From the NCBI GenBank assembly GCA_965248435.1, contig OZ252100.1, forward strand, positions 1,120,001 to 1,184,000: a stretch of 64,000 nucleotides of DNA, given 5' to 3'. The notes below the pieces were generated by a model that was not told the DNA's origin, did no database searches, and saw only the letters and a list, made by a program, of their open reading frames with translations. Of this stretch, positions 1-61,002 are shown one piece after another (position 1 is the stretch's first letter; the number at the start of each line of letters is the position of its first letter). Position numbers and translations under genes: made by a program. Source of the DNA: Candidatus Latescibacterota bacterium. Lineage in GTDB: Bacteria > Latescibacterota > UBA2968 > GCA-2709665.

Positions 1-75
1 TTTCAAGATCAAACGCTTAACTCCGTCAAGACGCAAGCCGGCACATCCAAATCACTCGACCAGAGACCTTTACGC

Positions 76-791
76 TCACGGAGCAAAGACCTGAACCCGG
101 TTGTTAAACACGTCGGCTACGTAGATTCGACCCTGCGAGTCCAGTGCGATTCCTGCCAGCGACTCGAGACCTGCGTCCACTGGAAAGAAGGGGGAAAGGC
201 CGGAAAACTGAAACACCCCCTCCTCTGTACCGAAATCACCCCACTCGGTGAGTAACTCGCCGTCCGAAAACACTTTCACTTCAGACTGGATCGCGTCGAT
301 CACGAAGATGCGACCATCTTCACTGACGCGGAATCGACGATAAATCCTCGCATCTTCAAGGGCTTCAGACACCCATATGAGATCCTCTGCGACGGCCAAG
401 TTGAAGGCAGCCGAGGGATCCTCGGCCTGAAATCCATATTCTCCAACCCGGATTCGCTCGTGCCCCACCTGGGAGCAGGTCGCCTCTGCAAGCCGGACGA
501 AGAACTCCCGATCATCGGAAACGCCTGCCATAGCCTGCATGTCGACGAAGATGGGAAGAAACCGACACCGAGCCGACCGTTCAGGATCTGGAATAGGATG
601 GATGTCTTCCCGCTCCGCCGTTCGCCGACGAAGAGGAGGACGCACCCCTCAGTTTCCGCGACCAATCGCTAACGGGCATAGGCGAAATCCTCCTCACGCC
701 CGAAGAACAGGTTCGGGTCGCGGACTGGATTGCCCGTGATGAACGGATTCGGGGAAATGGGAGTAAATTCGGTCGTGTCTTCAGATCCCAT
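76..791 (-). pseudogene. Decayed STAND/AAA-type P-loop ATPase N-terminus fused to an NHL-repeat C-terminus
   Basis: ATG at 791 reads MGSEDTTEFTPISPNPFITGNPVRDPNLFFGREEDF, hits an in-frame TAG at 669-671, then Walker A GERRSGKTS. A frameshift near 560 leads into LPIFVDMQ, and the ORF ends in an NHL repeat (GIALDSQGRIYVADVFNNRVQVF). Confidence 0.7.
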
Positions 792-829
792 GGCCAGGCC
801 TTTGCAAAAGCCCCTTTCTGAAAACCAGA

Positions 830-899
830 AGAGCCCAACTGGAATCGATCCCGCCGGGCTCTGTCACATTGCTTATGTATGGTGGCCCCGAGGAGAGTC
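830..899. repeat. att-like site A: hairpin (830-862) plus 18/20 copy of tRNA-Glu 3' end (880-899)
   Basis: tggtggccccgaggagagtc versus tRNA 12953-12972 tggtgaccccgaggggagtc; stem agagccc/gggctct. Confidence 0.75.
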
Positions 900-1001
900 C
901 AAGGGAAAGCAACGCTTAAAGGACTCGTGTATCAGCTAGAAATCCAGCCAACCCGTCTCGACGCCGCACTCCCTCAAGTCATCTCCGCTTCTATTAATCA
1001 A

Positions 1002-1868
1002 TCATACCTCCACAACCATTCCATCATAAGCCAGAACGACGCCCCTCCGGGCCATATCCTCGACAATATCCTCGTGGGGTCCGACCTGCCTCAGGCTGAT
1101 GTGCGAGCCTACGATAGCCGTATCGCTACTGATAATCCCCGCTTGGCTAAGCTCAGAAATGGTGTGTTTAACCATGGAAAAATTCTGGTGCCCGGAGCGG
1201 GCCGGGTCGATCTCTAGATCCCCGAAGGTCGCATCGAATACGGCCAGATCCACCTGAAATCGGCGCAGGTAGTCCAGAGTCAGCGGTAGAATATAAGAGG
1301 AATCCAGGCCGTAAAAAACCGTTTTCCCGCCGCGCTCGAAGACATAATTCAGGGCCCGCTGCTCCCTGATCGTGTACTGCTTGTTGATGCAGTGATTGGC
1401 GTCCACTGCCGTGACCGTGGTGTCCCCAACCTCAAAACGCTCCTCCGGCCGAACCAGGTGGAAGTCGACATTTGGCTCGCTCCTCCGAGCGCAGAACCTC
1501 TTGATGCTCTCCTTCCACTCATAGCTCGCCGCAAACTCCAGAGCATCCCCCACCATCCCGTTGCCGTAGATCTGGAGCGTATGGCGCAGACGAGCGGCAA
1601 ATTCCAGAATGGCGACCGGCTGGAAATGATCCTGGTGTCCGTGAGTGATCAACAGGTGCCGGATCGTATCCCCGTTGACGCCGAATTTTCTTAACTGACG
1701 GTCGTCGTAGAAGTCTATCGAAATGTCTGGGGAAATCATGACAGAGGACGCTCGGCGCAGGTTCTTACCCCCGAGTTGCCGAGCCCGGACCAAGTGCTTG
1801 CTTTGGTCCTCCAGATCGTCCAGGAGGTGGAAATCGCCAGCCCCGGTGCCTAGAAACAGGAGCTTCAC
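1002..1868 (-). CDS. Metallo-beta-lactamase-fold hydrolase (PhnP/RNase Z-like)
   Basis: N-terminal LFLGTGA, THGHQDH motif, later H, D and SH motifs. Confidence 0.85.
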   Translation of the reverse strand: MKLLFLGTGAGDFHLLDDLEDQSKHLVRARQLGGKNLRRASSVMISPDISIDFYDDRQLRKFGVNGDTIRHLLITHGHQDHFQPVAILEFAARLRHTLQIYGNGMVGDALEFAASYEWKESIKRFCARRSEPNVDFHLVRPEERFEVGDTTVTAVDANHCINKQYTIREQRALNYVFERGGKTVFYGLDSSYILPLTLDYLRRFQVDLAVFDATFGDLEIDPARSGHQNFSMVKHTISELSQAGIISSDTAIVGSHISLRQVGPHEDIVEDMARRGVVLAYDGMVVEV

Positions 1869-1934
1869 GCTGTCCTCGAACCGGTCATAGCGCCCGGGCT
1901 CTGCAATCCCGAAACGTCGGCGAACGCAAGGTGC

Positions 1935-3887
1935 TCAAACTGAATGGTCGTCCTCCTTCAGATACTGGCGCAGCCAGTTAATTACGCGCTCGGCCATGTC
2001 CCGTACATGAGCTCGCTCGATGACTCCGTGGGGCTCTCGCGGGTAGACGATCAGCTCGACGGGTATGCCCTTGTCCTTCAGGGCGCGATAGAAGAGATAC
2101 GATTGCTCCACCGGTACGTCTTCGTCCACCTCGCCGTGGAGAATCAGGGTCGGCGTCTGCAGATTGTCGTAGTAGGACAGGGGTGAGAATCGTGTGTATC
2201 GCCCCTCGGCCTCGTAGGGACTGGCCTGGTAGTAGAGCTGGTCCCACGCCGGCAGGCAGCTCTTCCCGTGGAAGCTGAGCCAGTGCGAAATGCCGGCGCC
2301 CATCACCACGGTTCGGAAACGGTCGGTCTGCGACACCGCCCAGGCCGCTATGAAGCCTCCGTAGGACCAGCCGGAAAGGGCCAGTCGATCGGCGTCGGCG
2401 ATACCCGTCCCGATCAGCGAGTCAATACCCAGCATCATGTCCTCGAAGTCCTTGCCGCCCATGTCGCCGAGGTTGCTCTCGGAAAACTTCCGCCCCCAGC
2501 CGACGGAGCCGCGGTAGTTGGGCATGAACACGGCGTAGCCCTCGTTGGCCATCAGCTGGGCCCAGCCGCTGGCGGCGTAGTAACGCGAGCCACTCACACC
2601 GCTCGGCCCTCCGTGCACGCTCATCACCAGCGGGTAGCGCTTGCCGACCTCGTACCCCACCGGCTTTATCAGCAGGCCCTGCATCTTCTCTCCGTCGGCG
2701 CCCATCCATTCGTGGACGTCGGTCTCGCCGATGTCGATATCGGCGCTCTGCGGGTGCAGATTCGTGAGCTGAGTCCACTCGAGGGCGCTGTCCGCCGGGC
2801 GCCCGATCCACACGTCCAGCGGATTTTCGGCGTCCTCCAGCACCACGGCGAGGTCGCCGTTCTCGGCGTGGGAAAAGCGTGGCCAGTTCGCAATGGAGAC
2901 GGCGGCCTGCTGCCACCACAGACTGCTCCGCTCGCCGTCGGCGACACGGATCCGGTAGATCCCCGTGCCGCCCCGCTCGTGACCGATCGTCTGCAGCTCG
3001 CAACCGTCGGGCGACCAGGCCAGCCAGCCGATGCCGGCGACCATGCCCTCGGTGAGGTTGCGCGCCTCCCCTCCGGGCTCGAGCAGCCACGCGTCTCCGG
3101 CCACACACCCCCGATCACTCCAGGTCGAGGAGATGAAGGCCAGTTGCTCGCCGCTGGGCGACCACAGCGGTAGCGCCGCCTGGCACTCCGATTGCCACAG
3201 GGTCTCAACATCGCCGCCCAGATCGAAGCGCACCAGGCGGTTGCCGTACCAGGCGGATTCCGTGGGCAGATCGGACGCCACGGCTGCGATCTCCGATCCA
3301 CTCGGATGCCAGGCGAATTCCCAGATCTGCACCCCCGCCGTCGGTGAGGCACAGCACACTTCCCCTGTCGCCACCTCTACCGTCCACAGCCGCACGTATT
3401 TCAGATTCTGCTCGAAGGTGATAGCGTCGTCTTTGTCTTCGCGCCGCTGTCGCTCCTCGTCGGTCTCCGGGTCTTCCATCAGGAAGCCCAGAGCGCTTCC
3501 ATCCGGCGACCACTGCAGCGCGCTGAGACCTCGCGGCGAGGAGATCTCGCCCTTTATCTCGGTCAGGGCGATGGCTTCGCCGCCGCCGGCCGGGAGCAGA
3601 AACACCTGCCGCTGGCCCTCCTGCAGACGATCGGACAGAAAGGCCACTTGACGGCCGTCCGGCGACCAGCGGGGCAATGAATCGGTCCGCGGTCCGGCAG
3701 TGAGCTGGATCGCTGGCCCTCCCGCTGTACTCACCGTCCAGATGGTGGACCTGGGCCACTTGCTGTCCAACTTGAAGGAATCCCCGACTGTGAAGGCGAC
3801 CCGCGTTCCGTCGGGAGAGATCTGCGCGTCTTCGACACTCTTGAACGACAGTACATCTTCGGTTGTGAGAGGACGCCTTGAAAGCAT
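1935..3887 (-). CDS. S9 family peptidase (acylaminoacyl/dipeptidyl peptidase)
   Basis: PD40/beta-propeller repeats (WSPDG), VHGGP, GWSYGG nucleophile, HGEVDEDV, EPHG triad. Start chosen at MLSRR. Confidence 0.92.
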   Translation of the reverse strand: MLSRRPLTTEDVLSFKSVEDAQISPDGTRVAFTVGDSFKLDSKWPRSTIWTVSTAGGPAIQLTAGPRTDSLPRWSPDGRQVAFLSDRLQEGQRQVFLLPAGGGEAIALTEIKGEISSPRGLSALQWSPDGSALGFLMEDPETDEERQRREDKDDAITFEQNLKYVRLWTVEVATGEVCCASPTAGVQIWEFAWHPSGSEIAAVASDLPTESAWYGNRLVRFDLGGDVETLWQSECQAALPLWSPSGEQLAFISSTWSDRGCVAGDAWLLEPGGEARNLTEGMVAGIGWLAWSPDGCELQTIGHERGGTGIYRIRVADGERSSLWWQQAAVSIANWPRFSHAENGDLAVVLEDAENPLDVWIGRPADSALEWTQLTNLHPQSADIDIGETDVHEWMGADGEKMQGLLIKPVGYEVGKRYPLVMSVHGGPSGVSGSRYYAASGWAQLMANEGYAVFMPNYRGSVGWGRKFSESNLGDMGGKDFEDMMLGIDSLIGTGIADADRLALSGWSYGGFIAAWAVSQTDRFRTVVMGAGISHWLSFHGKSCLPAWDQLYYQASPYEAEGRYTRFSPLSYYDNLQTPTLILHGEVDEDVPVEQSYLFYRALKDKGIPVELIVYPREPHGVIERAHVRDMAERVINWLRQYLKEDDHSV

Positions 3888-4187
3888 GGAAGGTCCCTGT
3901 GTGAAGTTTGAGGAGCAGAGGCTTACGGGCACCCGCTATCTCGGGTCCGTGGGTCAGTTGACGAGGTGGGCGGACTTCATCGACACCCCCAAATATGTAC
4001 AGGGGTACACACGGTAAAACACTGCAGGACGACTGTGTCCCCACCAGTCCCAAAGTGAAGCCCGATCGCACGAGCAAAGCCTGCGACCGGTCACAAAACC
4101 TTCCCCTTTGCTGCGGTCTCTAGGTATCCAACGCAAAGCTCCTTGCAAACCCACTGCCGAACTCTCCGACACGCTCCAACCCGCGCC

Positions 4188-6032
4188 TTACCAGTAGATC
4201 CGCTCTCTCGAGACGAACCGTTCGATCTTCTGCCAGCGGGTGCTGTCGCGTCGATAATGGTCCCGTTGGTACAATGGACAGAGCCGCCCCGGCGGATCGA
4301 TGGCGACCACATCATTGCCCTTCCGCACCAGCGTGAACTTTTCCTTCTCGATCCACACCTCATCGGTCCGCTCCGCAATGGGGAAGGTCATCGTCGCCAC
4401 ATCCCCTGGTTTCACCTCGCCCACCTCCGCATAGCGACCATCCCGACCCACTGGACGATCATTGCCGTTCAACTGCAGTCTCACTTCATCGTGCTTCACC
4501 CACTCCGGGATGCGAATCGACAGCTCTACTGACTCCTTAATTCTCACATCCACCTGCCCTACGTAGGGGACGTGGCTATCAACATCCGCCCAGGGAGAGG
4601 CGCGATTCAGAAGCAGGTTCAGCCGCAACTTGCCAGAATCATGGGTCAAGATATTCTCCCACACGTAATAGAGGGCTCGACTGCCGGTTCCCGTGCAGCA
4701 GTGCATTATACCGTTGCCAACGCCTTCGTACCAGTCGTTGGCCTTGGGCCATCCTCCAAAGGCGCCGATGTTTCGCTCTATCACCCGCTCCGTGGTTTGA
4801 CCCATCGGATCCACTTCCGAGCGGGGCTGTCCCGCCGAATAGCGCCTGAGCCAATCGCCCTTCGCGGGCGTCAACTGCATTTCCACGAGCATGTTCCGCA
4901 CCCAACGATCCACGTCGTCGAGATAGTCTCCCACACCGGCCTCGGTCAGCTTCAGGCCCAGGGCGATCATGGTGGCCACCTCACAGATCTCGGAATGCTG
5001 CAGGTGCGGTGATCCTATAGTCTCCGGGAAATACCCGGTGAGCATTTCGCCGTTGGCCATGCCGTACTGAAAACCCCGGTGGGCGAAATCGATCATCTCC
5101 TGGTCTCCGCTGAGCATGCCATACTCCAGCATGGCCTGCAGACCGATGGCATGGTGATAGAAATGAGCTGTCGGTCTTTCCAAGGGACGGTCGGGCAAGA
5201 AGGTGCCGTCTGGAGCGAAGTGGTTGTTATGGTCCTTCAAATGGCGGCACAACTTGCCTGCCAGTTCCAGGGCCGGCTCGTAGTTCAGGGCCCGATACGC
5301 CTGCGCCAGCCCCACGGCGACCCAGCCGCCAAAGCTGCCCAGAAACGGACCGGGTATTTCTGCGTTCGGGTCTGTCTCCTCTCCCGGCAGAAAAATCGCC
5401 TGTGGGCAGTAAGCGTAATCTTCTCGCTCGATGGCACGCGCAGCCAGGGCATCGACCAGACGCTCGACAACCGACCGCCATACGTCACTACTGTCCCGAA
5501 GCGCGTAGAGGCTCAACGCACCCAGGGCACATCCGCAGTCAGCGGGAAGGGTAAGATGGTCCGCAGCCAAAGTGCGCTCGAGGTCATCATACTTGTCCAG
5601 ACGAACACGTGCCCACGGCCGGCCCCTTGTGGGCATGTAGAGCAGGCCGTCCGGCCCCTGCATGCGCAGGATCACCTCCATCCAGCGCCGCTCCACGTGC
5701 TCGTTCACGTCCGAGCCGCTCACGAGACGCACGAGTTGAAGCGACTCCATGAACTTCCACTGATTTTCGTGATCCCAGCATTGGTGCCGCATCATCGGCG
5801 GATTATGATTCAAGGTGGCGAGGAAATACAGTTCATAATCCGCGTCTGGATCGGTGGGGCCGGTGAGCCCACTTACCGCGAGTGCGGCCCGCTCCTGAAG
5901 ATCCAGGGTATCCGGCACCTGCGCCTCGTAACGCTCCCCGTTGCGGGCGGGAAGCTGAAACTCGGGGATGTCCGGACGGATATAAGCTATGGGGTCCCCT
6001 TGCCTCAGTTGCGTATTAGGCCTATCGCTCAT
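4188..6032 (-). CDS. GH127/GH146-like (beta-L-arabinofuranosidase-like) glycoside hydrolase
   Basis: SEICEVA and HCCTG metal/catalytic-type motifs, LSIRIPEW C-terminal beta domain; RBS gaggagggg before ATG 6032. Confidence 0.7.
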   Translation of the reverse strand: MSDRPNTQLRQGDPIAYIRPDIPEFQLPARNGERYEAQVPDTLDLQERAALAVSGLTGPTDPDADYELYFLATLNHNPPMMRHQCWDHENQWKFMESLQLVRLVSGSDVNEHVERRWMEVILRMQGPDGLLYMPTRGRPWARVRLDKYDDLERTLAADHLTLPADCGCALGALSLYALRDSSDVWRSVVERLVDALAARAIEREDYAYCPQAIFLPGEETDPNAEIPGPFLGSFGGWVAVGLAQAYRALNYEPALELAGKLCRHLKDHNNHFAPDGTFLPDRPLERPTAHFYHHAIGLQAMLEYGMLSGDQEMIDFAHRGFQYGMANGEMLTGYFPETIGSPHLQHSEICEVATMIALGLKLTEAGVGDYLDDVDRWVRNMLVEMQLTPAKGDWLRRYSAGQPRSEVDPMGQTTERVIERNIGAFGGWPKANDWYEGVGNGIMHCCTGTGSRALYYVWENILTHDSGKLRLNLLLNRASPWADVDSHVPYVGQVDVRIKESVELSIRIPEWVKHDEVRLQLNGNDRPVGRDGRYAEVGEVKPGDVATMTFPIAERTDEVWIEKEKFTLVRKGNDVVAIDPPGRLCPLYQRDHYRRDSTRWQKIERFVSRERIYW

Positions 6033-6304
6033 GGCATTGTCCCCTCCTCTTTTTCGTCTCCCGTAAATTAAAAGTATCTTTAAATCTAACGACTCATCGG
6101 GCAAACAACGGTGGAACCGACTGTATCCTTGAGTATGGAAAATGGCTGCCGCAACGACGGAGATCGAGGGTCTGATAGTGGGCTTCGCCACGTGTTTCGA
6201 GCCCGACTGTGTCACGCCGGTCGATCTGCGCCTGTATGGAATGCTTATACAATGTACTCCAAATGAATATCACCGAAATCCGCATCCTCAGGGAGAAAAA
6301 AGGG

Positions 6305-6368
6305 AAAGTCCTGCTGGAATCGAATCCCGCAGGACTTTTAGAGCCTTGTTTTTGGTGACCCCGAGGGG
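6305..6368. repeat. att-like site B: hairpin (6305-6338) plus 16-bp exact copy of tRNA-Glu 3' end (6353-6368)
   Basis: tggtgaccccgagggg; stem aaagtcctgc/gcaggacttt. Confidence 0.8.
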
Positions 6369-6791
6369 TCACGCACAAGTCGCAAACACTTTTGGGGACC
6401 TCTACGCGCTGGAGAAAACGGGCTTCCTGTACGTCGGACCTGCGTGTCGGCAGGCAGCATGAGGCTAGGACTGGATTTTCCGCTCAAAGGAGGGTAGGTA
6501 GCCCCGGTTTCGCAAGCGCACAAAGATAGCCTCCACACGTGCAAATTCCCAGAACAAAAAGGCATCCTCGCGAATTACTACCTCTGAACCGCATTCGCCT
6601 GCACGAGCGACTCACTCCTGATTCGCGTTCCAAGACACACCTTGCAACCCTCATCCTACCTGCATATCTTACCGTAAATTAGTGACTTCATGCTCCGAGG
6701 CTGAAGACGGGACGAACAAATCGGACACCTGTTGAGGGGCACGCTTCGGAGAGAGGTGTGCCCGATTCTCGTGGAGATCTGGCTCTCTTCT

Positions 6792-9700
6792 ATGGTTACT
6801 TCTGTTCGCATATTGCTTGTAGGCTTCTGGATCTCCGGATTTGTCCTCTCAGTCGGAGCTGCGCCGGGGGACATCACCACCGTGGCCGGTGGAGGCGTCG
6901 GCGACGGGCGTCCAGCGACTAATGCGGGCTTGAATGTCCCTAGTAGGCCATTCTTGGATGCGGCGGGCAATCTCTATATCGCGGATACGTTTAATCATCG
7001 GATCCGGAAGGTGGATAGGTCAGGCACCATCACCACCGTGGCGGGAAACGGGTCCGCTGGTTTTTCCGGCGATGGGGGTCCTGCGACCCGTGCAAGCTTG
7101 AATAGACCCTTCGGAGTCTTCGTTGATGAGTCAGGCAATCTCTACATTGCGGATACGGACAATCACCGGATTCGCAAAGTAGATGCGTCGGGCATCATTA
7201 CCACCGTGGCAGGAACTCTCTTCTTTGGTTTTTCCGGCGATGGGGGTCCAGCGACCCGCGCAAGCTTGAATAGTCCTAACGGAGTCTCCGCGGATATGGC
7301 GGGTAATCTCTATATTGCCGAATTTGAAAATCACCGCATCCGCAAAGTGGATACGTCGGGCACCATCACCACCGTGGCGGGAGATGGGACCGCTGCTTAT
7401 TTCGGTGATGGGGGCCCCGCAACGGATGCGAGTTTGGGTTTTCCTTTTGACGTTTTCGTGGATATGTCAGGAAATCTTTACATTGCAGATACGGGCAATA
7501 ACCGAGTTCGCAAAGTGGATACGTCGGGGACCATCACTACCGTGGCAGGAAATGGGACCCATACTTATTTCGGTGATGGGGGCTCTGCAACGGATGCGAG
7601 TTTGGCTTTTCCTTATGGTGTATTCGTGGATCGTTCAGGCAATCTCTATATTGCGGATACGTTTAATAATCGGATTCGGAAAGTAGATCCGTCGGGCACT
7701 ATCACCACCGTAGCTGGAAGTGGGGACTCCTTTAGTCCTTTAGCCGATATAGGTCGTGCAATTACCTTTAACCTATGGGCGCCCAGAGGGATTTTCGGGG
7801 ACGGATCAGGCAATCTCTATATTGCGGATACGTTTAATCATCGGATTCGAAAGGTAGGCCCAGGAGGTGATATCAGCACTGTAGCTGGAGGTGGTTTTGT
7901 CGGCGATGGAAGTCCGGCGACCCACGCAGGCTTGTTCGGCCCTCAAGGCATATTCGTCGACGGGTCGGGAAATCTCTATATCGCCGATCGGGGAAACAAT
8001 CGGATTCGGAAGATAGATGGGACTGGCACGATCACCACCGTGGCGGGAAATGGAAGGATTCGTTTTCGCGGGGATGGAGGTCCGGCAACCAGTGGGAGGG
8101 TGTGGGAGCCTGGAGGCGTTTTCGGAGATCGATCAGGCAATCTCTATATTGCGGATACGTTTAATGATCGGATTCGGAAAGTAGATCCGTCGGGCACTAT
8201 CACCACCGTGGCGGGAAATGGGAACCCTACATTTTCTAGCGAGGGGGGGCCGGCGATCGGTGCAAGCTTGTTTGGTCCTTCTAGCGTTTTTGTAGATAGG
8301 TCAGGCAATCTCTATATTGCGGATACGTTTAATCATCGGATTCGCAAGGTACATCCCTCGGGCGCCATCACCATCATCACCACCGTGGCGGGAAATGGGA
8401 CCCGTGGTTTTTCCGGGGATGGGGGTCCCGCGATCCGTGCAAGTTTGACTTTTCCTTTCGACGTTTTCGTAGATGGGTTAGGCATCCTCTATATTGCGGA
8501 TAAAGACAATCACCGGGTTCGGAAGGTGGATGCGTCGGGGACGATCACCACCGTTGCGGGAAATGGGATCCCTAGTTTTTCCGGCGATGGAGGCCCGGCG
8601 ACGCGCGCGAGCTTGGTTGCACCCAATAGCCTCTTCGTAGATGGGTCGGGCAATCTCTTTATTGCGGATAGAGGCAACAACCGGATTCGGCGAGTGGAAG
8701 GCATTGCGGCACCTCCCAACTTGGTGGTGGGTGTTTTCGAGCCGCCAGCTCTCGTATCTTCCCTGCCGGGGCTTGGACCTGCTTCTCCGGGTGTAGGGCC
8801 AACGCTTTCCGGTCCGCTTCCCATCCTCGGCCCGGGGCTGAACGATCCGCAGGAGGCGGGCACCATTCGAACTATCGCGGGAGGCGATGTTGGTGATGGC
8901 CGGGGCGCCCTGGAGGCAAACCTCCTTTTTCCAAACGATGTTGTTACCGACCAGGAGGGCAACCTCTACATCTCTAGCGGGAGCAACAACCGGGTGCGCC
9001 GCGTCGATGCCCTCACCGGTCTGATCAGCACCGTCGCAGGAACCGGCATCCGCGGCTTCTCCGGCGACGGAGGCAGCGCCGTAGACGCCAAACTTGCTTT
9101 CAATGTTGGTCTTGCCATCGACAGTGCCAGCAACCTCTTCCTTGCGGATGCCGCCAACCACCGCATCCGCCGGGTAGATGCTCAAACAAGCATTATTACA
9201 ACGGTCGCCGGAACAGGTGAGCCCGGCTTCTCCGGGGATGAGGGACCGGCAGTCAATGCGCAACTTTTGTTCCCGGAGGACATAGCTGTAGATCGCGCAG
9301 GAAATCTTTTCATCGCTGACAGGAGCAACCATCGTGTCCGGATGGTCGATTCATCTACCGGACAGATCGTCACTGTAGCAGGCAACGGGGCCCCAGGGTT
9401 TGCGGGAGACGGAGGGCATGCGCTCGCTGCACAGATAGAAGTCCCCGAGAGAATCGCCGTCGATAATTCGGGAAATCTCTATGTCTCAACGGGCAGCCGC
9501 ATCCGCCGCATCGATGCAAAGACGGGCACCGTGACCACAGTCGCGGGCACTACCACCGGCTTTTCCGGAGACGGTGGCCCGGCAACGGAAGCGCAATTCA
9601 GCGACTCTCAGAGAATTGCTATAGACGCACAGGGCAACATCTTCGTGGCGGATCAGGGCAATCACCGCATCCGGAAAGTCGATGCCCAGAGCGGGATTGT

Positions 9701-11087
9701 CACCACCCTGGTCGGCACAGGTAAGTTGGGCTTTTCCGGAGACGGTGGTCCGGCTGCCCAGGCCCAGCTCTTTTTTCCAGAAGCTGTCGCCTTAGACAAC
9801 AAGGGAAGCCTGTTGATTGCAGACCAAGGGAACAGTCGCATTCGAAAGGTGGTCCTTCGAACAAACACCATCACTACTGGAGCGGGCGGGGGTGTAGGCG
9901 ATGGACGGCCCGCATTACAGGCACAGCTTGGCTTTCCGAGGCACATCGTTCTGGATGACTTGGGCAATCTCTACATTGCAGACCGCAGCCATAACCGCAT
10001 TCGAAGAGTCGATGCGAAGACCGGACTCATCAGCACGATCGCAGGTACAGGTATTCGCGGATCTACGGGAGACGGTGGACCGGCCACAAGCGCCCTGATT
10101 GCATTTCCATTCGGCCTGGCCGTAGATCGTGCAGGAAACCTGTTTATTTCTGATTTCGAAAACGACCGCATCCGGAAGACCGATCTCAAGACAGGCATCA
10201 TCGCAACGGTTGCAGGAGCCGATACAGCAGGGTTTTCCGGGGACGGCGGGCAAGCTGTGCAAGCTCAACTCGACGATCCATTAGGCCTCGCTCTCGACAG
10301 TGCCGGCAACCTCTTCTTTGCAGATGCCGAGAACCACCGTGTCCGGCGTGTGGATACGAAAACCGGTGTGATTACCACCATTGCAGGCACGGACACGGAA
10401 GGACTCTCAGGAGATGGCGGTCCAGCGACAGCGGCGGCCTTGTTGCATCCCCGGGATGTGGCCGTGGACGCCGCAGATAACCTGTTTATCGCGGATACTT
10501 TCAACGACCGCATCCGGAAGGTCGATCTCAAGACAGGCATCATTACAACGGTTGCAGGAGCCGATACAGCAGGGTTTTCCGGAGACGGCGGGCCCGCTGT
10601 GGAGGCTACACTTAGTTTTCCATCATCCATTGCTCTGGATGCCAAAAGTAACCTGTTTATAGGCGACCTTGGCAACGACCGTATCCGGAAGGTCGATGCC
10701 AGCACGGGCATCATAAGCACGGTTGCCGGCAGCGGGACACGCGGATTTTCCGGGGACGGCGGGCCTGCTACCAAGGCGGCCTTTTTGGGGCTCTGGGGGG
10801 TAGCGATCACGCCTTCGGGAGACCTCCTGATCTCCGATGCCACCAATCATCGAATCCGTCGTGTAGCGGGCATCGCTGCGCCTACGACGCATGGGGATGC
10901 CGTGGTTAAGACTTCCGATTTCAACGGAGATGGAACGGTAAACTTTGAGGATTTCCTTGAATTTGCGCAGAATTTCAGCAAGAACCAGAGCGATCCGGAT
11001 TTCGACGCGACGTATGATCTAAACGACGACGGGGAGGTGAATTTCATGGACTTTTTCCAGTTTGCCCAGGCCTTCGGTCAGGCCTGA
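6792..11087 (+). CDS. Secreted NHL-repeat (beta-propeller) protein with C-terminal dockerin/EF-hand-like domain
   Basis: Signal-peptide-like N-terminus from ATG 6792; >20 repeats of ~56 aa (GNLYIADTFNHRIRKVD...ITTVAG...GFSGDGGPA); Pro-rich linker; DFNGDGTVNFEDF...DLNDDGEVNFMDF. Confidence 0.92.
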   Translation: MVTSVRILLVGFWISGFVLSVGAAPGDITTVAGGGVGDGRPATNAGLNVPSRPFLDAAGNLYIADTFNHRIRKVDRSGTITTVAGNGSAGFSGDGGPATRASLNRPFGVFVDESGNLYIADTDNHRIRKVDASGIITTVAGTLFFGFSGDGGPATRASLNSPNGVSADMAGNLYIAEFENHRIRKVDTSGTITTVAGDGTAAYFGDGGPATDASLGFPFDVFVDMSGNLYIADTGNNRVRKVDTSGTITTVAGNGTHTYFGDGGSATDASLAFPYGVFVDRSGNLYIADTFNNRIRKVDPSGTITTVAGSGDSFSPLADIGRAITFNLWAPRGIFGDGSGNLYIADTFNHRIRKVGPGGDISTVAGGGFVGDGSPATHAGLFGPQGIFVDGSGNLYIADRGNNRIRKIDGTGTITTVAGNGRIRFRGDGGPATSGRVWEPGGVFGDRSGNLYIADTFNDRIRKVDPSGTITTVAGNGNPTFSSEGGPAIGASLFGPSSVFVDRSGNLYIADTFNHRIRKVHPSGAITIITTVAGNGTRGFSGDGGPAIRASLTFPFDVFVDGLGILYIADKDNHRVRKVDASGTITTVAGNGIPSFSGDGGPATRASLVAPNSLFVDGSGNLFIADRGNNRIRRVEGIAAPPNLVVGVFEPPALVSSLPGLGPASPGVGPTLSGPLPILGPGLNDPQEAGTIRTIAGGDVGDGRGALEANLLFPNDVVTDQEGNLYISSGSNNRVRRVDALTGLISTVAGTGIRGFSGDGGSAVDAKLAFNVGLAIDSASNLFLADAANHRIRRVDAQTSIITTVAGTGEPGFSGDEGPAVNAQLLFPEDIAVDRAGNLFIADRSNHRVRMVDSSTGQIVTVAGNGAPGFAGDGGHALAAQIEVPERIAVDNSGNLYVSTGSRIRRIDAKTGTVTTVAGTTTGFSGDGGPATEAQFSDSQRIAIDAQGNIFVADQGNHRIRKVDAQSGIVTTLVGTGKLGFSGDGGPAAQAQLFFPEAVALDNKGSLLIADQGNSRIRKVVLRTNTITTGAGGGVGDGRPALQAQLGFPRHIVLDDLGNLYIADRSHNRIRRVDAKTGLISTIAGTGIRGSTGDGGPATSALIAFPFGLAVDRAGNLFISDFENDRIRKTDLKTGIIATVAGADTAGFSGDGGQAVQAQLDDPLGLALDSAGNLFFADAENHRVRRVDTKTGVITTIAGTDTEGLSGDGGPATAAALLHPRDVAVDAADNLFIADTFNDRIRKVDLKTGIITTVAGADTAGFSGDGGPAVEATLSFPSSIALDAKSNLFIGDLGNDRIRKVDASTGIISTVAGSGTRGFSGDGGPATKAAFLGLWGVAITPSGDLLISDATNHRIRRVAGIAAPTTHGDAVVKTSDFNGDGTVNFEDFLEFAQNFSKNQSDPDFDATYDLNDDGEVNFMDFFQFAQAFGQA

Positions 11088-11096
11088 GCAAGGACC

Positions 11097-11175
11097 AGCC
11101 CTGCTGGAATGGATCCAACAGGGCTTCTATCGTCATCAGGTGTTTGCGAGTTCTTTGGTGACCCCGAGGGGAGTC
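11097..11175. repeat. att-like site C: hairpin (11097-11125) plus 20-bp exact copy of tRNA-Glu 3' end (11156-11175)
   Basis: tggtgaccccgaggggagtc is identical to 12953-12972; stem agccctg/cagggct. Confidence 0.85.
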
Positions 11176-11422
11176 CACCGGTATGCAACGCTTGTGATAG
11201 CTCGAAATCCAGCTCTATTGCTGATGGAGCTGCGTGACGCAGCTTAGTCTGGCACCGCCTGATCCGACGTCACTTCAATTCCAGCAATCCCCTCCATAAG
11301 CATCTCTTGGCCGCCGTTCCTCGCCGTCGTATCTTGGGTTGCGATGTGCACCTATGTCACCATCCATAAGACACATTTGCTATCCACTGCTCTTCGCGGA
11401 AAACCAAAGGACGAGCCCAGCC

Positions 11423-12508
11423 ATGGACGAAAACCCTACGGTCAGCACCGTATTCGAGATCGAGCCGCCGGATCCACCCAACGACGGCATCATGTTCGTA
11501 GACCACGCCCGATCGGGCCGTAGTGGCCACCTGGGCCACGCGCTCGTTGAATATGCACCGGGGAAAATCCTGGCGTTCTACTCCAACTGCTCGGATAGGA
11601 ACGACGGACACACGGGGGACGGGTGGATGGAATACCGGCGTTCCGAAGACGGGGGACGAACCTGGAGCGCCGGCGAAGTGCTTGCCTACTCCAAGGCGGT
11701 CTACGACAGGAACGCTGGAAAGTCCGTCATGTGTGAGAATGCCGTGCGAGCCGACGACGGGGCGGTCGTCCTGTTCAACCTGGAGTGCGGGAACACGGCC
11801 GAAGAGAAGTGGGCGTGGGCGCCGCTGGACGTTCCCACGTGTCTTCGCAGTACGGATGACGGCCGTACGTGGGGACCTGCGGAACCGATGGGCGATCAAC
11901 CCGGCCGCATCTGGGATGCGATGGTTCACGACGGCAGCATCCTGGTTCTCGAGCTGTGCAACGACAGCTCGATCCAATGGTACGGCAACCTTCCCGAGCA
12001 CTTCTACGGGCTCTATGCAAGCACCGATCACGGGCGCAGCTTCGCCCTGCGGAGCAAGCTGCCGCTCGAGATCCAGTGTCGGGGCTACGGCGCCCTGTCG
12101 ATTCTCCAAGACGGCGGACTGATCGCCTACGTCTACAACATGGCCGACGAAAAACACCTGGACTACGTCATCAGTCACGACGGCGGCTACACCTGGAGCG
12201 ACGTGCAAACCGCGTTTTTTGAGAAGCAGATTCGAAATCCGCAGATGGCCCGCTTCAAAGGCGGATACGTCCTTCACGGACGGAGCGGAGCCCAGGGAGA
12301 AGGGAGCGGACATTTCGTACTGTATACGTCGGACGACGGCATCCACTGGGACTCGGGACGCTACCTGCGGATGCAGGAGGCGCGCGCCGGCGCATACTCG
12401 AACAATTTACGCGTGCACAGCCCCGATGCACCGGAACGCCTGCTGATCCAGGCTTCCCACGCGTACGAAGGATATATGACGAACATCCTGCACTGGTGGC
12501 TGACTTAG
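11423..12508 (+). CDS. BNR/Asp-box (sialidase-like) protein
   Basis: Five Asp boxes: SEDGGRTW, STDDGRTW, STDHGRSF, SHDGGYTW, SDDGIHW. Confidence 0.85.
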   Translation: MDENPTVSTVFEIEPPDPPNDGIMFVDHARSGRSGHLGHALVEYAPGKILAFYSNCSDRNDGHTGDGWMEYRRSEDGGRTWSAGEVLAYSKAVYDRNAGKSVMCENAVRADDGAVVLFNLECGNTAEEKWAWAPLDVPTCLRSTDDGRTWGPAEPMGDQPGRIWDAMVHDGSILVLELCNDSSIQWYGNLPEHFYGLYASTDHGRSFALRSKLPLEIQCRGYGALSILQDGGLIAYVYNMADEKHLDYVISHDGGYTWSDVQTAFFEKQIRNPQMARFKGGYVLHGRSGAQGEGSGHFVLYTSDDGIHWDSGRYLRMQEARAGAYSNNLRVHSPDAPERLLIQASHAYEGYMTNILHWWLT

Positions 12509-12570
12509 TGGAAGGTCCCACGGGCCTCAGATTTCGCCAGGTCACATGACTCTCGGAGGTCCGATGACTC

Positions 12571-12871
12571 ATCAAATTCACCGACAGCGGCAGCGTGACG
12601 GTGAATGCGGCCACCGAGGACTGGCAACGTCATCGCCGTGTCCGATACCGGCAAGGGCATCCCCTCAGACGAACCACCCACCATCTTCGACGAATACCGT
12701 CAGGCCGAAGGGTCCGAGAGCAGCGTGCAGAAGGGCACCGGGCTGGGGCTGTCGATTACGAAGAAATTCGCGGAGCTGCTGGGCGGGACGATCGGCGTGG
12801 TGAGCGAAGTGGGCAAGGGCAGCACGTTTACGGTGCGGGTGCCGGTTGAGTATGGCGACGGACAATCCTGA
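12571..12871 (+). pseudogene. Histidine kinase HATPase_c fragment, 5'-truncated and frameshifted
   Basis: IKFTDSGSVTVNA in one frame, then VSDTGKGI...GTGLGLSITKKFAELLGGTIGVVSEVGKGSTFTV in another; no H-box or start. Confidence 0.85.
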
Positions 12872-12903
12872 CCGCTGACCTCTGTCTTCTGCTCTCTAAT
12901 CAC

Positions 12904-12940
12904 AAAGGCGCCCCTTCGGTCTGGCCGAAAGGGCGCCTTT
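12904..12940. terminator. Intrinsic terminator-like hairpin downstream of tRNA-Glu (possibly bidirectional)
   Basis: aaaggcgccc...gggcgccttt inverted repeat with A/T-rich ends. Confidence 0.7.
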
Positions 12941-12952
12941 CATTGTCAAAAA

Positions 12953-13027
12953 TGGTGACCCCGAGGGGAGTCGAACCCCCGTTGCCGGATTGAAAGCCCG
13001 GTGTCCTAACCGCTGAACGACGGGGTC
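12953..13027 (-). tRNA. tRNA-Glu(UUC)
   Basis: Reverse complement GACCCCG...CCGGG CT TTC AA TCCGG...GGTTCGACTCC...CGGGGTC A CCA; 75 nt cloverleaf. Confidence 0.95.
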
Positions 13028-13276
13028 ACCTTCCTCTTTTGACAACACTGGCGAATATATTCAAATCCCTCAGTTGAAGCAAGTTCTATTGGCTTGAATG
13101 GGAGCCATTTACGGTTCGAGGGGCGCCGATCGGGTATGAACAAGGTGCTTGACTTTCCCTGGCTCTTTATGTTTATTTAATGCCCCAAATTGACCAGGAA
13201 CCGCATTGTATCAGACCTTAAAAAGCCAATGGCCGGAGGAAACTTATTGAAGTTGCCTCTCAGATTGCCTCCATTT

Positions 13277-13350
13277 GGGCGATTAGCTCAGTTGGTTAGA
13301 GCGCTGGTCTCACATACCAGAGGTCACTGGTTCGAATCCGGTATCGCCCA
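13277..13350 (+). tRNA. tRNA-Val(CAC), CCA not encoded
   Basis: GGGCGAT TAGCTCAG...CTGGT CT CAC AT ACCAG...GGTTCGAATCC...ATCGCCC A. Confidence 0.95.
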
Positions 13351-13509
13351 TTCTTCAAAGCCTACCGACCCGCACCAGTCACGCAGGGTGGACTCGGGCG
13401 GTGAGAAAACGGAAGAGATGATCGAGTTTAGAAGGGTGCATCGAGAATCGATGCGCCCTTCTTTTTTGCCTTCCTGACAGAGGTTGTTCTTCCAAGGAGC
13501 GGAGCAGGA

Positions 13510-14229
13510 ATGAAAGAAAACTTGACGCTGTTGTTGAACCTACAGGAGATCGACACTGAGATCGACGTGCTGAGAAGATCCCAGGATGACTACCCGACAG
13601 AGATCGCAGAGCTCCAGGGTGAACTGGATCGGGCAAAACACCGGTTGGACGCAAAAGTCCAGAAGGAAGGTGGGCTCGAGAAGAATCAGCGCCTCATGGA
13701 ACAGGAACTTGAGGCCCTTAACCTTGACTTGAAGAAACACCAGGACCGCCTGTATGAAGTCAAGTCCAACAAGGAATACGATGCCCTTCAGCATGAAATA
13801 GAGGCACTGAGAGGCCGCGTAGAAGAGACCGAGACGGCCATCCTCGAATCCATCGAAGCAGCGGATGCGCTGAAAGAAAAATTGAAGGATGAGCGGCAGC
13901 TCTTCAAGGATTTGGAGAACGAAAAGCAGGAAAGGATTACGTCCCTTCAATCCCAGCTGGATTCCCTGGACGAGGACGTGAGGGGACGGGAGGAAAAAAG
14001 GGATGGCTTGGCGTCTCAGATCGATAAGAAACCGCTCTCCATCTATACACGCATCCGGAGAGTCGTGAAGGGCGGCGTTGCGGCCGTTCCGCTCGAGAAG
14101 GGTTCTTGCGGAGGGTGCTTCCGACGGATGCCGCCCCAGCGAATGGTCGAAATCCGAAGGCGGGATCAAGTCATTCGCTGCGAAAACTGTGGGCGATTGC
14201 TCGTGTGGAGAGAAGAGGTGAGTGCGTGA
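13510..14229 (+). CDS. Coiled-coil protein with C4 zinc ribbon (DUF164-type)
   Basis: Long coiled coil, NKEYDAL motif, CGGC...CENCGRLL. Confidence 0.9.
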   Translation: MKENLTLLLNLQEIDTEIDVLRRSQDDYPTEIAELQGELDRAKHRLDAKVQKEGGLEKNQRLMEQELEALNLDLKKHQDRLYEVKSNKEYDALQHEIEALRGRVEETETAILESIEAADALKEKLKDERQLFKDLENEKQERITSLQSQLDSLDEDVRGREEKRDGLASQIDKKPLSIYTRIRRVVKGGVAAVPLEKGSCGGCFRRMPPQRMVEIRRRDQVIRCENCGRLLVWREEVSA

Positions 14230-15074: not shown

Positions 15075-15905
15075 ATGGGATTTCACGAAAAATACAGTCG
15101 ATCTGCTGACAAAAACAGGAGCCTGGTCTGTGTCGGACTGGATCCCGATCCCAAGAGGCTTCCAGAACACCTTGAAGGGAAATCCGACGCCGTCCTGACC
15201 TTTCTGCGGGATATCGTTCTCGCTACGCAGGATCTGGTCTGCGCCTACAAGCCGAACTTCGCCTTCTACGGTGCCATGGGCGTGAGCGGATGGGAAACCC
15301 TCATTGGTGTAGTGGAAACGATCCCAGACGACATCCCAGTCATCCTTGATTACAAGGCGGGAGACATATCCAACACGGCATCCCGGTACGCGGCCATGGC
15401 CTATGAGCAGCTGAAAGTAGATGCTGTGACCGTGAACCCCCTTCTCGGCCGCGATTCGGTGATGCCCTTCCTGGATTACAAAGATCGGTGTGCCTTCCTG
15501 CTCTGTCTGACTTCGAACCCCGGCTCTGCCGACCTTCAACGCCTATCCGCCGATGGAAAGCCCCTCTACGAGACCCTGGCCTGCAAGGCCGTCTCGTGGT
15601 CGGCCGACGGCCCCTGCGGCCTCGTGGTCGGTGCGACCCACCCGGATGAAATGAGAAAGGTCCGGGACATCGCGCCCAACCTTCCCATCCTCGTACCCGG
15701 TATCGGTGCCCAGGGGGGGGAGACAGAGAACGTGATCATCAACGGGCAGGACGCATCTGGCAGAGGACTCCTCATAAACGCCTCCCGCAGTATCTTATAT
15801 GCCTCAGGGGGTCTGGACTTCGCCGACACGGCGAGAGAGGTCACAGAATCCCTGAGACAGCGGATAGAAGCGACCCGTGTTGCAGACTGCACCGAAGCCA
15901 CCTAG
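15075..15905 (+). CDS. pyrF: Orotidine-5'-phosphate decarboxylase
   Basis: LVCVGLDPD, YKPNFAFY, DYKAGDISNT, LVVGAT, PGIGAQGG, NASRSILYA. Confidence 0.95.
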   Translation: MGFHEKYSRSADKNRSLVCVGLDPDPKRLPEHLEGKSDAVLTFLRDIVLATQDLVCAYKPNFAFYGAMGVSGWETLIGVVETIPDDIPVILDYKAGDISNTASRYAAMAYEQLKVDAVTVNPLLGRDSVMPFLDYKDRCAFLLCLTSNPGSADLQRLSADGKPLYETLACKAVSWSADGPCGLVVGATHPDEMRKVRDIAPNLPILVPGIGAQGGETENVIINGQDASGRGLLINASRSILYASGGLDFADTAREVTESLRQRIEATRVADCTEAT

Positions 15906-15907
15906 AG

Positions 15908-16282
15908 CTACACCTCCCTCACCGGCGTCGGCCTTCCCTCATCGTTCAGGGCAACGTAGACGGCCCGGGCCTGAGTCACCCGGACCCGCCCACTTCCGTC
16001 AGTCCGATCCGCCTCCACATCTATCGAGACCGTAACCGACGTTCGTCCAACGCTCTGCAGCTGCGTGTAGAAAGAGACCACGTCACCCACGAACACGGGC
16101 GCGACGAATTCGATCTTGTCGATCGCCACGGTCACGACGCGATGGGCCGTATGCTTGCGCGCTTCGATCGCACCGGCGATGTCCAGGTGACTCATGATCA
16201 CGCCCCCGAACACGACGCCGTAAGCGTTCGTATCTTTCGGCAGCAGGACCACCCGGATTGTCGGACTGAGTTCTTCGGTCAT
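15908..16282 (-). CDS. Acyl-CoA thioesterase (hot-dog fold, YciA-like)
   Basis: [33 protein letters not shown]. Confidence 0.9.
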
Positions 16283-16399
16283 TTTCTTTCCTCATAAAGT
16301 TTCTGGTTTCTAGTTTCTAGTTCATATTAACACGGCTGTGAGTTCGCATACCGCTTTGTCTTTCAACTCGAAATCCGAAACCCGCGACTCGAAACTGTC

Positions 16400-18544
16400 T
16401 CATTTAAAATAGCGCTTCAGCAGCCGACCTGCCTCCCCCGCTTCGACGCCCTGCGCCTTCAAGGATTGCAGCCTCTCAAACGCTTCCGCATCCCGACCGA
16501 ATCTTCTGACGGCCGCGATGTAAGCGGAATCCGACTGAGCGTAGTCTTTGTTCACCAGGTAAAACAGTGCAAGGTCGAAATGCGCGCTGCTCAGGTCTGG
16601 GTTCAGCGCGACGGCTTCCTTTGCCTCCAAAATGGCCTCTACAAAATACCCGGCCTGGAAATATTCGCGTCCCAGACTTTGTCTGATCTCTGCCAGGTCC
16701 ATCGTGGGCCGCGAGTGCATCGAAGTGAGTAGCCTCTCGATAATCACCTGTGCCTCCTCCACGCTTCCCGATCTCAAGTATGCACGGCCCAGCTTATACA
16801 CAACAGGGAGATAGTCCGGCGCCAATTCAGCTGCCAATCCATACTCCCTGATCGCTTGATCGTTCAGACCGAGCTGGAAGTGAATGTCGCCCATGGTCTC
16901 CCGGGCCAGCGGCTGCCCGTATAGCTGGTCTGAAAACAGGTGCGTGACCCGCTCATTCCAGGATGGCACTGAACGTTGCTCTCCTTTTGGCGCTGCTTGA
17001 GTGCGTTCGTAGACCGATACCGTTCCGAAATCTCTGGCCAAACGATAGACTGGGATATGCCCCGCTCTCAGGTATCTATAAAAATAGTGTGAATCAAGGA
17101 ATAGATCCTTGCCCAGCTGGGTCCGGCTAGTATCACCCAGATCACTATAATGGCTCGCCGTGGCCTCCCGAACCACAAGCAGATCTGGTTTCAGATGGTT
17201 CACCATTGGATAACTCTGCCCGATCGCAGTCGGTACCGCCTTGAGAAATTTGGGTGGAACGTAGGCATAGGCGTCGTAAAGGACCGACCTCTCCGGTGGA
17301 AAGGTCGCCTCGATCCACTTGCCAGCCGAAATTTCATGGCTGAGTTTCTCCCGCTTCCACCTCCCACGGAAAAAGCTTGCATCTCCGGCAAGGGGCTCCC
17401 ACAGAAGCAGCGCGAGAAACAGGGGGAGCAGAACCTGGAGGACCGGAATCCTTTCTGACAGCCGAGCCCGGGTCCACATCATGCTTCGGTGGACCAAATC
17501 GGATACAAAGAGCAGCGCGACTGGCAGGATTGGAAGCAAGTACCTTGTTCGCCTCACGTTGATTTCAAGAACGAGATACGAAAGCACGACACCGATCCAG
17601 ACTAGCAAGATCCCACGATCCATCGGAAGTTTGCGACGACTCAACGAATAGCTCGCAGCGCCCAGGGCACAGACAAAAATCAGCAGGCCGACCCTTCCCA
17701 ATATCCCGGCAAGTGCCCCGACCCACATTATCCCTCTGTCGTCTTCGCGGACAACGTGACCGGTTTCCATGATCTCTTTGAAGGCTGACAGACTGCCCGT
17801 GAATTCCCCAAACCGGACGACAGCGTAAGGAGTCGTAAAGGCAAAGACAAGCGCAAAAACGCATGGGACGATCAGCAGAGCCCTCAAGAAGCCCCAATCG
17901 TTTATCTGTTGGGCCACGCCTCCCGGTCGCGAGGCAGATGCCGCCAACGCGATAACCGGGAGCAGGAAGATCCCGATGTATTTGGTCCCGAATGCGAGTC
18001 CCGCGAACAGTGAGGCGAGCAGGATCCATCTCAACCTGAATTCGTTCGCCAGTCGACAGCACGCGAGAAGCGCGCACAGTACCCAGAACAACTGGGGAAG
18101 ATCGGGATGGGACTCTACCGACCAGCGTATGAAAACGGGCATTACAGCCAGCAGGACGCAGGCGATGGATGCCGCCACCGGATTGAACACCCGGAGACCG
18201 ATCCGATAGGTCATCCAAAGACACCCCAATCCGGCCAGCGTACAGAACCCACGAAGCGTGACGACGATCATTCGTTCGGAAACGTCTCCCAACGCACCAA
18301 GAAATTTCAGGGCGACCATCGGCAGGTAGTAGAAGAGCCCACCATATTTGTACGTGCCAGGATCGAGCGTTTCCCCCCGGTAGAGGTGACGCACAACCGT
18401 TGCGGCCCCAAACTCATCCAGGGAGTAAACACCGGCCATTCGGAGATCGTCTGCCGCTACGGAGAGCAAGGGAAGCGTGAAGGCAATGTAGAAGAGCCCG
18501 CAGAGTACCGCGCAGAGGGACGGCCATTCTCTAACGGCTCGCAT
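16400..18544 (-). CDS. GT-C (ArnT/PMT_2-like) glycosyltransferase with C-terminal TPRs, paralogue 3
   Basis: About a dozen TM segments, YSLDE, HPDLPQL, FGTKY, YAYVP motifs; TPR-like tail. Start taken at MRAVRE. Confidence 0.8.
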   Translation of the reverse strand: MRAVREWPSLCAVLCGLFYIAFTLPLLSVAADDLRMAGVYSLDEFGAATVVRHLYRGETLDPGTYKYGGLFYYLPMVALKFLGALGDVSERMIVVTLRGFCTLAGLGCLWMTYRIGLRVFNPVAASIACVLLAVMPVFIRWSVESHPDLPQLFWVLCALLACCRLANEFRLRWILLASLFAGLAFGTKYIGIFLLPVIALAASASRPGGVAQQINDWGFLRALLIVPCVFALVFAFTTPYAVVRFGEFTGSLSAFKEIMETGHVVREDDRGIMWVGALAGILGRVGLLIFVCALGAASYSLSRRKLPMDRGILLVWIGVVLSYLVLEINVRRTRYLLPILPVALLFVSDLVHRSMMWTRARLSERIPVLQVLLPLFLALLLWEPLAGDASFFRGRWKREKLSHEISAGKWIEATFPPERSVLYDAYAYVPPKFLKAVPTAIGQSYPMVNHLKPDLLVVREATASHYSDLGDTSRTQLGKDLFLDSHYFYRYLRAGHIPVYRLARDFGTVSVYERTQAAPKGEQRSVPSWNERVTHLFSDQLYGQPLARETMGDIHFQLGLNDQAIREYGLAAELAPDYLPVVYKLGRAYLRSGSVEEAQVIIERLLTSMHSRPTMDLAEIRQSLGREYFQAGYFVEAILEAKEAVALNPDLSSAHFDLALFYLVNKDYAQSDSAYIAAVRRFGRDAEAFERLQSLKAQGVEAGEAGRLLKRYFK

Positions 18545-22876: not shown

Positions 22877-22958
22877 GGGAGGTCAAAACGGAATATAGGC
22901 CCCCTCCGATTGCCCGGTCAAGATGACTTTGATAAAGCACTGTTCGCCGAAAAAGCCC

Positions 22959-23023: not shown

Positions 23024-23130
23024 CTGTAGCCGAGTGTTCATCTCCGCTGCAGCCGCCTCTCGGAGCCGCTCGGTCGCCCGGTCAAGCGGCTCTGGTTATT
23101 TTTGGAAGAGGAATCGAGGAACAAAAACAC

Positions 23131-61001: not shown

Positions 61002-61002
61002 T

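Follow-up and report, generated by a model that had tools for sequence, protein, structure and literature searches.

Stacked cargo segments at a tRNA-Glu gene of a Latescibacterota bacterium: a probable composite and decayed island

Tandem islands at small-RNA genes and the tRNA-Glu locus

Islands that accumulate one behind another at the end of a small-RNA gene are best compared with those of Dehalococcoides. Tandem islands at ssrA are bounded in these bacteria by 20-bp repeats of the 3' end of the small-RNA gene (PMC3146451, McMurdie et al. 2011); their insertion point lies in the T loop, extra conserved sequence surrounds the repeats, and some of the islands have no integration module and are suggested to be cis-mobilizable (PMC3146451). 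A second precedent is provided by the streptococcal integrative and conjugative elements (ICEs) ICESt1 and ICESt3, for which the course runs from integration through decay to a cis-mobilizable element (CIME) and on to the accretion of a further element (PMC5704250). A third is the integrase-only island, described as widespread at tmRNA and tRNA genes and dependent on a helper for transfer (PMC12595487). Here we analyse a 64-kb stretch of DNA (64,000 nucleotides of contig OZ252100.1 from a Candidatus Latescibacterota bacterium, referred to as the window), in which three segments, denoted E1, E2 and E3, lie between copies of the 3' end of a tRNA-Glu(UUC) gene. We consider it likely, with a probability of roughly three in four, that this array is a composite, decayed island that arose by three site-specific integrations at tRNA-Glu(UUC) and then lost its mobility genes.

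The array belongs to a known kind, the tandem accretion of tRNA-linked islands. [quoted passage not shown] In Dehalococcoides, however, the target is a tmRNA gene, integration is served by a serine-recombinase module and many strains are available, whereas here the target is a tRNA gene, no recombinase has been identified and the phylum is a different one. CIMEs and tandem accretion in the ICESt1/ICESt3 family are reportedly treated by Pavlovic in 2004 and Bellanger in 2011, as relayed by a citing review. [quoted passage not shown] By contrast, the cognate ICE and integrase of the CIMEs are known and their cis-mobilisation has been shown experimentally, whereas the present array has neither, and both target and taxa differ. 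The integrase-only islands likewise integrate right at the 3' end of a small-RNA gene, are flanked by short repeats, carry varied cargo and have no genes for autonomous transfer; they measure 23-55 kb and encode a tyrosine integrase and AlpA, whereas the segments here measure 1.8-5.5 kb and have no integrase. Among the features by which tRNA islands are recognized, the locus shows direct repeats of the 3' end and a break of synteny at the tRNA end, but no internal integrase, whose gene is usually found beside the tRNA.

The initial annotation of this DNA had described the array as integron-like. Integron arrays have IntI, attI and a promoter at one end and co-oriented cassettes that each end in attC at the crossover. 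What the array has in common with them is a row of short cargo units, each having hairpin-forming sequence close to its end. Unlike in integrons, there is no IntI or attI; the hairpins lie 16-30 nt away from the repeated block, which is itself the end of a tRNA; and the genes are in mixed orientation, E1 having its genes on the minus strand, E2 and E3 theirs on the plus strand. No tyrosine recombinase is found within 43 kb of the array, and the one at 56508-57632 scores 35.6 bits against an integron-integrase cut-off of 265. With IntI and attI missing, gene orientation mixed and the hairpin away from the crossover, this part of the initial description fails on each integron feature examined, and nothing supports an integron-like mechanism.

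Junctions of the array and the empty site in relatives

The intact tRNA-Glu(UUC) gene, the putative integration target, occupies 12953-13027 on the minus strand (ARAGORN; 61.8 bits with the Rfam tRNA model) and includes an encoded CCA; its 3' end is the left end on the plus strand. A tRNA-Val gene at 13276-13351 is divergent from it (ARAGORN). The 20-mer TGGTGACCCCGAGGGGAGTC, which spans the CCA, the discriminator base, the 3' strands of the acceptor and T stems and 4 nt of the T loop, has four plus-strand matches in the 64 kb, compared with an expectation of 0.01, and none of 100 shuffled sequences reached four. Apart from the tRNA itself (12953, no mismatch), these are site A (11156-11175, no mismatch, 20/20), site B (6353-6372, three mismatches, 17/20, with the first 16 bases identical) and site C (880-899, two mismatches, 18/20), the last being probably the original outer junction of the array. 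All copies are in direct orientation with spacings of 5473, 4803 and 1797 nt, and beyond these four sites no further match to the 20-mer occurs anywhere in the window. The match to the tRNA breaks off within the T loop at sites A and C, and beyond the T stem at site B. Over 6353-6370, the B copy also forms a perfect 8-2-8 palindrome, GTGACCCC GA GGGGTCAC, unlike the tRNA itself, which may reflect chance or a different element end. A palindrome of this kind might bring Xer/dif-type capture to mind. In an Rfam search of positions 1-14000 with E values up to 1, only the two tRNAs reach gathering scores; four other matches fall far below them and none of these is at a junction. A reading of the junctions as pseudo-tRNAs thus finds no Rfam support in this range.

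The state of the locus before any insertion can be gauged from 80 loci gathered around relatives of the Zn-ribbon gene at 13510-14229. In 27 of them, a tRNA-Glu/tRNA-Val pair stands beside the same Zn-ribbon gene, and none of these 27 has a second tRNA-Glu end (up to 3 mismatches in 20) within the up to 10 kb examined. In the closest locus, L001 (OZ240239.1), the tRNA-Glu is identical to that of the window, the backbone proteins are 69-91% identical, and homology with the window begins exactly at the 3' end of the tRNA, position 9467 of L001 corresponding to 12952 of the window. To the left of its tRNA, L001 carries a small open reading frame (ORF) and genes for a LysR protein, a TPR/GWxTD protein, a glycerate kinase, a DUF1648 protein and a TPR-PPIase, which are found in the same place in L004, L005, L010, L015, L022, L041 and L044; none of them is present in the 64-kb window. 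Since these genes are conserved on the left flank of the empty site in relatives and are missing from the window, positions 880-12952 are inserted DNA. Judged from these assemblies, the tRNA-Glu site is normally empty in representatives of Latescibacterota. The 879 bases to the left of site C are not syntenic with the relatives either; they could belong to the flank of the host and lie outside the array. Searches for recombinase families were negative for 129 ORFs of at least 170 aa to the left of the tRNA in 26 relatives (E up to 1e-8), among which one DDE transposase was seen, in L006, and equally for 12 ORFs of L001. As a separate feature of the relatives, a 13-nt motif, TTTGTCAACAGGG, recurs 50-250 nt downstream of tRNA-Glu in five of them from different lineages (L001 9221-9233, L002 214-226, L003 1349-1361, L005 9176-9188 and L015 8266-8278) and is absent from the window.

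These results bear on several statements of the initial annotation. The recurrence of the tRNA-Glu 3' end at 11156, 6353 and 880, with 20/20, 16/16 and 18/20 matching bases, was correct in both coordinates and counts. Repeated insertion had been proposed to have left a stack of reduced elements, and the repeats do bound DNA that is absent from the relatives' locus. The segments had further been said to hold only cargo. In agreement with this, families of recombinases, transposases and transfer proteins are missing from the 8 main ORFs of positions 1-13000 and, at E values up to 1, from the 16 small ORFs of the same interval; what has to be added is a gene relic in E3.

On the right of the repeats, the arms of sites A (11176-11213, plus strand) and C (900-950, plus strand) are homologous. 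Both leave the tRNA sequence at the same base; of the 18 bases next to the 20-mer they share 14, and AGCT.GAAATCCAGC follows past an 11-nt indel (z 4.2). A box, GCAACGCTT, begins exactly 29 nt from the start of the copy at both sites. Site B has at this same distance a weak counterpart, GCAAACACTT (6382-6391, plus strand), that agrees in 6 of 9 positions and is not significant alone; the joint score of the box over all three sites was reached by 1 of 5000 shuffles, and the right arm of B by itself shows no significant similarity to the others. Comparison of the right arm with a decayed tRNA body or a tRNA promoter likewise gave no significant similarity. A right-arm pattern with a variable gap has no match in the relatives' loci, and one with fixed spacing has none at all, missing even A and C because their spacing differs. 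The homology of the arms shows E1 and E3, at least, to be members of one element family, to which E2 may tentatively be added.

On the left of the repeats, hairpins at 832-860, 6307-6336 and 11097-11125 (minus strand) lie 19, 16 and 30 nt from copies C, B and A, respectively. Common to all three are a lower stem of 8 bp, a short upper stem (GGA/UCC) and a top that is conserved, and the likeness among the left arms is limited to these ~29 nt (z 5.3-6.5). Among them, that of site C comes nearest to the native L001 hairpin and has two G-U pairs when read on the minus strand; those of A and B share a TG/CA variant of the stem, that of B being followed on the minus strand by a T-rich tail and that of A lying 10 nt past the stop codon of the NHL-repeat gene of E2. 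In L001, the same hairpin occurs at 9418-9446, 21 nt downstream of the intact tRNA-Glu at an unoccupied site, and it is therefore no att arm peculiar to the elements. The four copies (three junctions and L001) were used to build a covariance model which, searched against the window with filters off, matches the three junctions only in the 64 kb and the L001 site only in 1.4 Mb of related loci; the matches are the model's own training sequences, and the informative part is that there are none elsewhere. A pattern for the module as a whole (hairpin core, gap, tRNA end) has no match in the genome collection, which excludes the genome of the window.

The pairing of the shared hairpin depends on the strand considered. 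On the minus strand, which is that of the tRNA transcript, pairing holds in 44 of 44 cells; compensatory changes are seen in 2 pairs, and 3 cells are G-U, which would become A-C mismatches on the plus strand; covariance scores are 44-45 bits for the minus strand versus 20-34 bits for the plus strand. This comparison comprises four sequences, and three of three transitions in the right direction would arise by chance in 1 of 8 cases. Given full pairing on the transcript strand only, the evidence points to an RNA structure of the tRNA-Glu transcript that resembles a terminator, and most simply is its terminator, rather than to a DNA site peculiar to an element. In the window, the intact tRNA-Glu is followed directly by a different, 16-bp hairpin (12904-12940, minus strand), which has no similarity to the three others and falls outside the shared family; it is the present terminator-like structure of the gene.

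Together, the two arms modify what had been said of the junctions. A hairpin is present to the left of each copy, as described, and lies 16-30 nt away, but it is native in L001 and not an att arm of the elements. The idea of conserved att modules survives in the homologous right arms of A and C and not in the weak arm of B or in the tRNA-proximal junction, with its different hairpin; descent of all the segments from one family is similarly upheld by A and C, with B barely similar.

Of the three sites, C looks like the native outer boundary of the array, as far as alignment with L001 can tell. Its hairpin is the one most like that of L001, the right half of the stem being identical; the 250 nt to the left of copy C align with the native flank of L001 with a score of 65, compared with a null maximum of 44; and the values are p ~0.03 for the 60 nt to the left of the hairpin and p ~0.07 for the spacer between hairpin and copy. 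Sites A and B show no flank similarity to L001. With a native boundary at C, there is no particular reason to expect further copies, or a recombinase, on its left.

Formation of the array and competing explanations

We propose that E1, E2 and E3 entered through site-specific recombination between a site on the element and the 3' end of the tRNA gene. Each integration would have rebuilt the tRNA from element DNA and pushed the old 3' end, together with its hairpin, outward, and this displacement would have left the direct repeats of 16-20 nt. Site C would then carry the host's own hairpin; the hairpins at B and A would have arrived with the elements, supplied by the tRNA-proximal ends of E1 and E2, and E3 would have supplied the different hairpin now found at the tRNA. 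In such a stack, the outer junction would join host flank and displaced tRNA end on one side to an element arm on the other, the inner junction would join the element's other arm to the rebuilt tRNA, and at sites B and A the tRNA-proximal end of one element would meet its neighbour's distal end. The missing integrase, and any transfer genes, would have been lost or reside elsewhere, so that the remainder would be cargo between att-like junctions. The number and order of the integration events are what we infer from this arrangement. The identity block extends from the CCA end to within the T loop, a stretch that tRNA-directed tyrosine integrases usually target, and its position would suggest the type of recombinase.

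Several observations weigh against a composite island of this kind. Neither a cognate integrase nor an intact member of the family turned up in the tRNA-Glu region or in the loci of the 27 relatives. A and C alone make a firm case for one family: B has a barely similar right arm, and the tRNA-proximal junction is without the family hairpin. Support for a native boundary at C is weak beyond the hairpin, and the genes to the left of C are not those of L001. For element hairpins to be host-like, the elements must presumably once have copied the flank of a host tRNA. Composition, finally, is only mildly atypical. The tetranucleotide distance of E1 is 0.216, compared with a maximum of 0.208 for core chunks of like size; that of E3, 0.294, is within the range of core chunks, and the value for E2 is inflated by its internal repeats. 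The array as a whole is close in composition to its host (GC 55.6% in the window, whose proteins are recorded on a contig of 5,656,476 bp), with the S9 peptidase gene of E1 (GC 65%, GC at third codon positions (GC3) 81%) and the repeat-rich E2 as exceptions.

The segments could instead still be mobile as recombinase-less cassettes, served by an integrase from elsewhere in the genome or from an incoming element, in which case the locus would be a cassette platform; we regard this as unlikely. The tRNA end is well conserved at the junctions and the box stands at a fixed distance in A and C, but copy C has 2 mismatches and the identity block of B is shorter. The hairpins of A and B keep their pairing through compensatory changes, but the tRNA-proximal junction is without the shared hairpin. 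Tandem members that have no integrase and are suggested to be cis-mobilizable are known (PMC3146451, PMC5704250), whereas no candidate integrase for tRNA-Glu is known here, the window's sole tyrosine recombinase (56508-57632) being located in a separate island of 46% GC at a tRNA-Ala gene. The gene relics in E3 and to the left of site C speak for decay. At the locus of the 27 relatives there is no second tRNA-Glu end and hence no cassette, and the integron-like form of the proposal is further opposed by the mixed gene orientation and by the lack of an integron integrase or an attI-like site.

Both the composite island and continued mobility draw some support from the BNR/sialidase-fold gene of E3, the former also from the high GC of the S9 peptidase gene. 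One member of its cluster, P0246, is on a contig other than that of the window, is 99% identical to the window protein and is probably in the genome of L044, five of whose backbone proteins are 47-63% identical to those of the window. If P0246 does belong to this genome, the likeness points to a recent move of the gene between distant lineages. In the most far-reaching version, a family whose attachment site includes a copy of the tRNA-Glu end and its terminator hairpin would exchange recombinase-less units of 1-3 genes between distant Latescibacterota, with an integrase acting in trans. Each insertion would then restore the tRNA and its terminator, and tRNA-Glu would be a cassette platform in an uncultivated phylum; we hold this version to be quite improbable.

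It is very unlikely that the ~130-nt module (hairpin, spacer, tRNA-like 20-mer and right arm) is a genome repeat, akin to miniature inverted-repeat transposable elements (MITEs) or repetitive extragenic palindromic (REP) sequences, that came to lie near tRNA-Glu by chance. Both arms are indeed conserved at A and C, but the three copies are confined to the 12.1 kb downstream of the tRNA and share its orientation, and the remaining 51 kb holds none; L001 has a single such hairpin, immediately behind its tRNA; and the 20-mer is the exact tRNA end, stopping at the T loop. Slippage or unequal crossing-over might instead have duplicated the tRNA-Glu 3' region locally, with no mobile element taking part and the intervening genes native. 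A hairpin of the host's own type beside each copy agrees with this, but such a duplication is highly improbable, as the segments are mutually unrelated and absent from the relatives' locus, the hairpin-to-copy spacers vary in both length and sequence, and the non-tRNA right arm starts at the same base in A and C.

If the array is a composite, decayed island, positions 880-12952 would be acquired DNA and its genes for secreted-type hydrolases and a repeat protein would be accessory, which is relevant to annotation of the genome. Inside the stack, hairpins like the host's tRNA terminator are found again, which suggests an ability of elements to bring along the terminator of their target together with its 3' end; this is a small observation and no new mechanism. 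For Latescibacterota, the locus would illustrate in detail how islands stack at a tRNA gene; judged by titles and abstracts, we found no paper on a tRNA-linked island of this phylum in the open literature.

Cargo, gene relics and neighbouring regions

The three segments are unrelated to one another in sequence. E1 (900-6352) contains three genes, all on the minus strand, that encode a metallo-beta-lactamase-fold hydrolase (1002-1868), the S9 peptidase (1935-3887) and a protein with a GH127 middle domain (4188-6032). E2 (6373-11155) holds a single plus-strand gene, which starts at 6732 or 6792 and ends at 11087; the protein of ~1430-1450 aa consists of NHL/teneurin-type beta-propeller repeats and has a dockerin-like end. 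At the DNA level, positions 6850-10810 of this gene comprise ~18-20 tandem units of 168-171 nt that are 60-88% alike. E3 (11176-12952) carries the BNR/sialidase-fold gene (11423-12508, plus strand) and a histidine kinase relic. When grouped at 90% identity, the BNR protein falls into a cluster of 24 members, the S9 peptidase into one of 6, the GH127-like protein into one of 3 and the E1 hydrolase into one of 1; for the backbone, the clusters of the Zn-ribbon gene and PyrF have 7 members and 1 member, respectively. Collections of plasmids and phages contain no match to positions 830-13027.

Two gene relics, that in E3 and that to the left of site C, indicate decay. The kinase relic (~12570-12871, plus strand) comprises the last ~100 codons of the gene, is cut in the N box (…LIKFT…) and is frameshifted. 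A relic with the same out-of-frame start is also found on a small contig from elsewhere (P0397), so that more than one of the populations sampled has it fixed; the short kinase-like proteins of the database begin at points other than that of the window relic, and the identical relic occurs only on small contigs. A unit in which the relic travels together with the BNR gene would be speculative. The last ~75 residues (12605-12871) are 75-95% identical to the C-termini of many histidine kinases with lengths of 156-1791 aa. Among the 120 matches listed (P0273-P0392), 12 belong to a 7,406,310-bp contig, 8 to an 8,426,055-bp contig and 8 to a 2,381,705-bp contig, and by these alignments the C-termini look like a very large family, recently expanded or homogenised, in big Latescibacterota genomes. 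The second relic (76-838, minus strand), on the left flank of site C, is the start of a P-loop ATPase with an in-frame stop and an internal deletion, fused to a single NHL repeat; it would be outside the array if site C is the outer boundary.

A second island, at 54403-64000, lies directly downstream of a tRNA-Ala(GGC) gene (54327-54402) and has a GC content of 45.6%. It encodes a metallo-beta-lactamase-fold protein (55281-56246) with matches to PDC-M48B, a candidate defence family, and to LmuA; further on come a tyrosine recombinase (56508-57632) and a HerA/DUF87-type ATPase (58218-60188), and the island also holds several ORFs without a family. The end of tRNA-Ala is not repeated in the window, so the far end of this island would lie beyond 64000. 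Its integrase is an improbable candidate for the enzyme missing from the tRNA-Glu array, being part of a separate low-GC island that lies at a different tRNA, unlike tRNA-Glu at its 3' end. A region of ~8.3 kb (15900-24200), located between the PyrF/thioesterase genes and fabZ and absent from the syntenic stretch of L001, carries three paralogous genes for PMT_2-type glycosyltransferases of ~720 aa (16400-22876) and a response regulator. A gene at 36140-37123, between lolA and ftsK, encodes HTH_38 and rve domains, as in IS30-type transposases.

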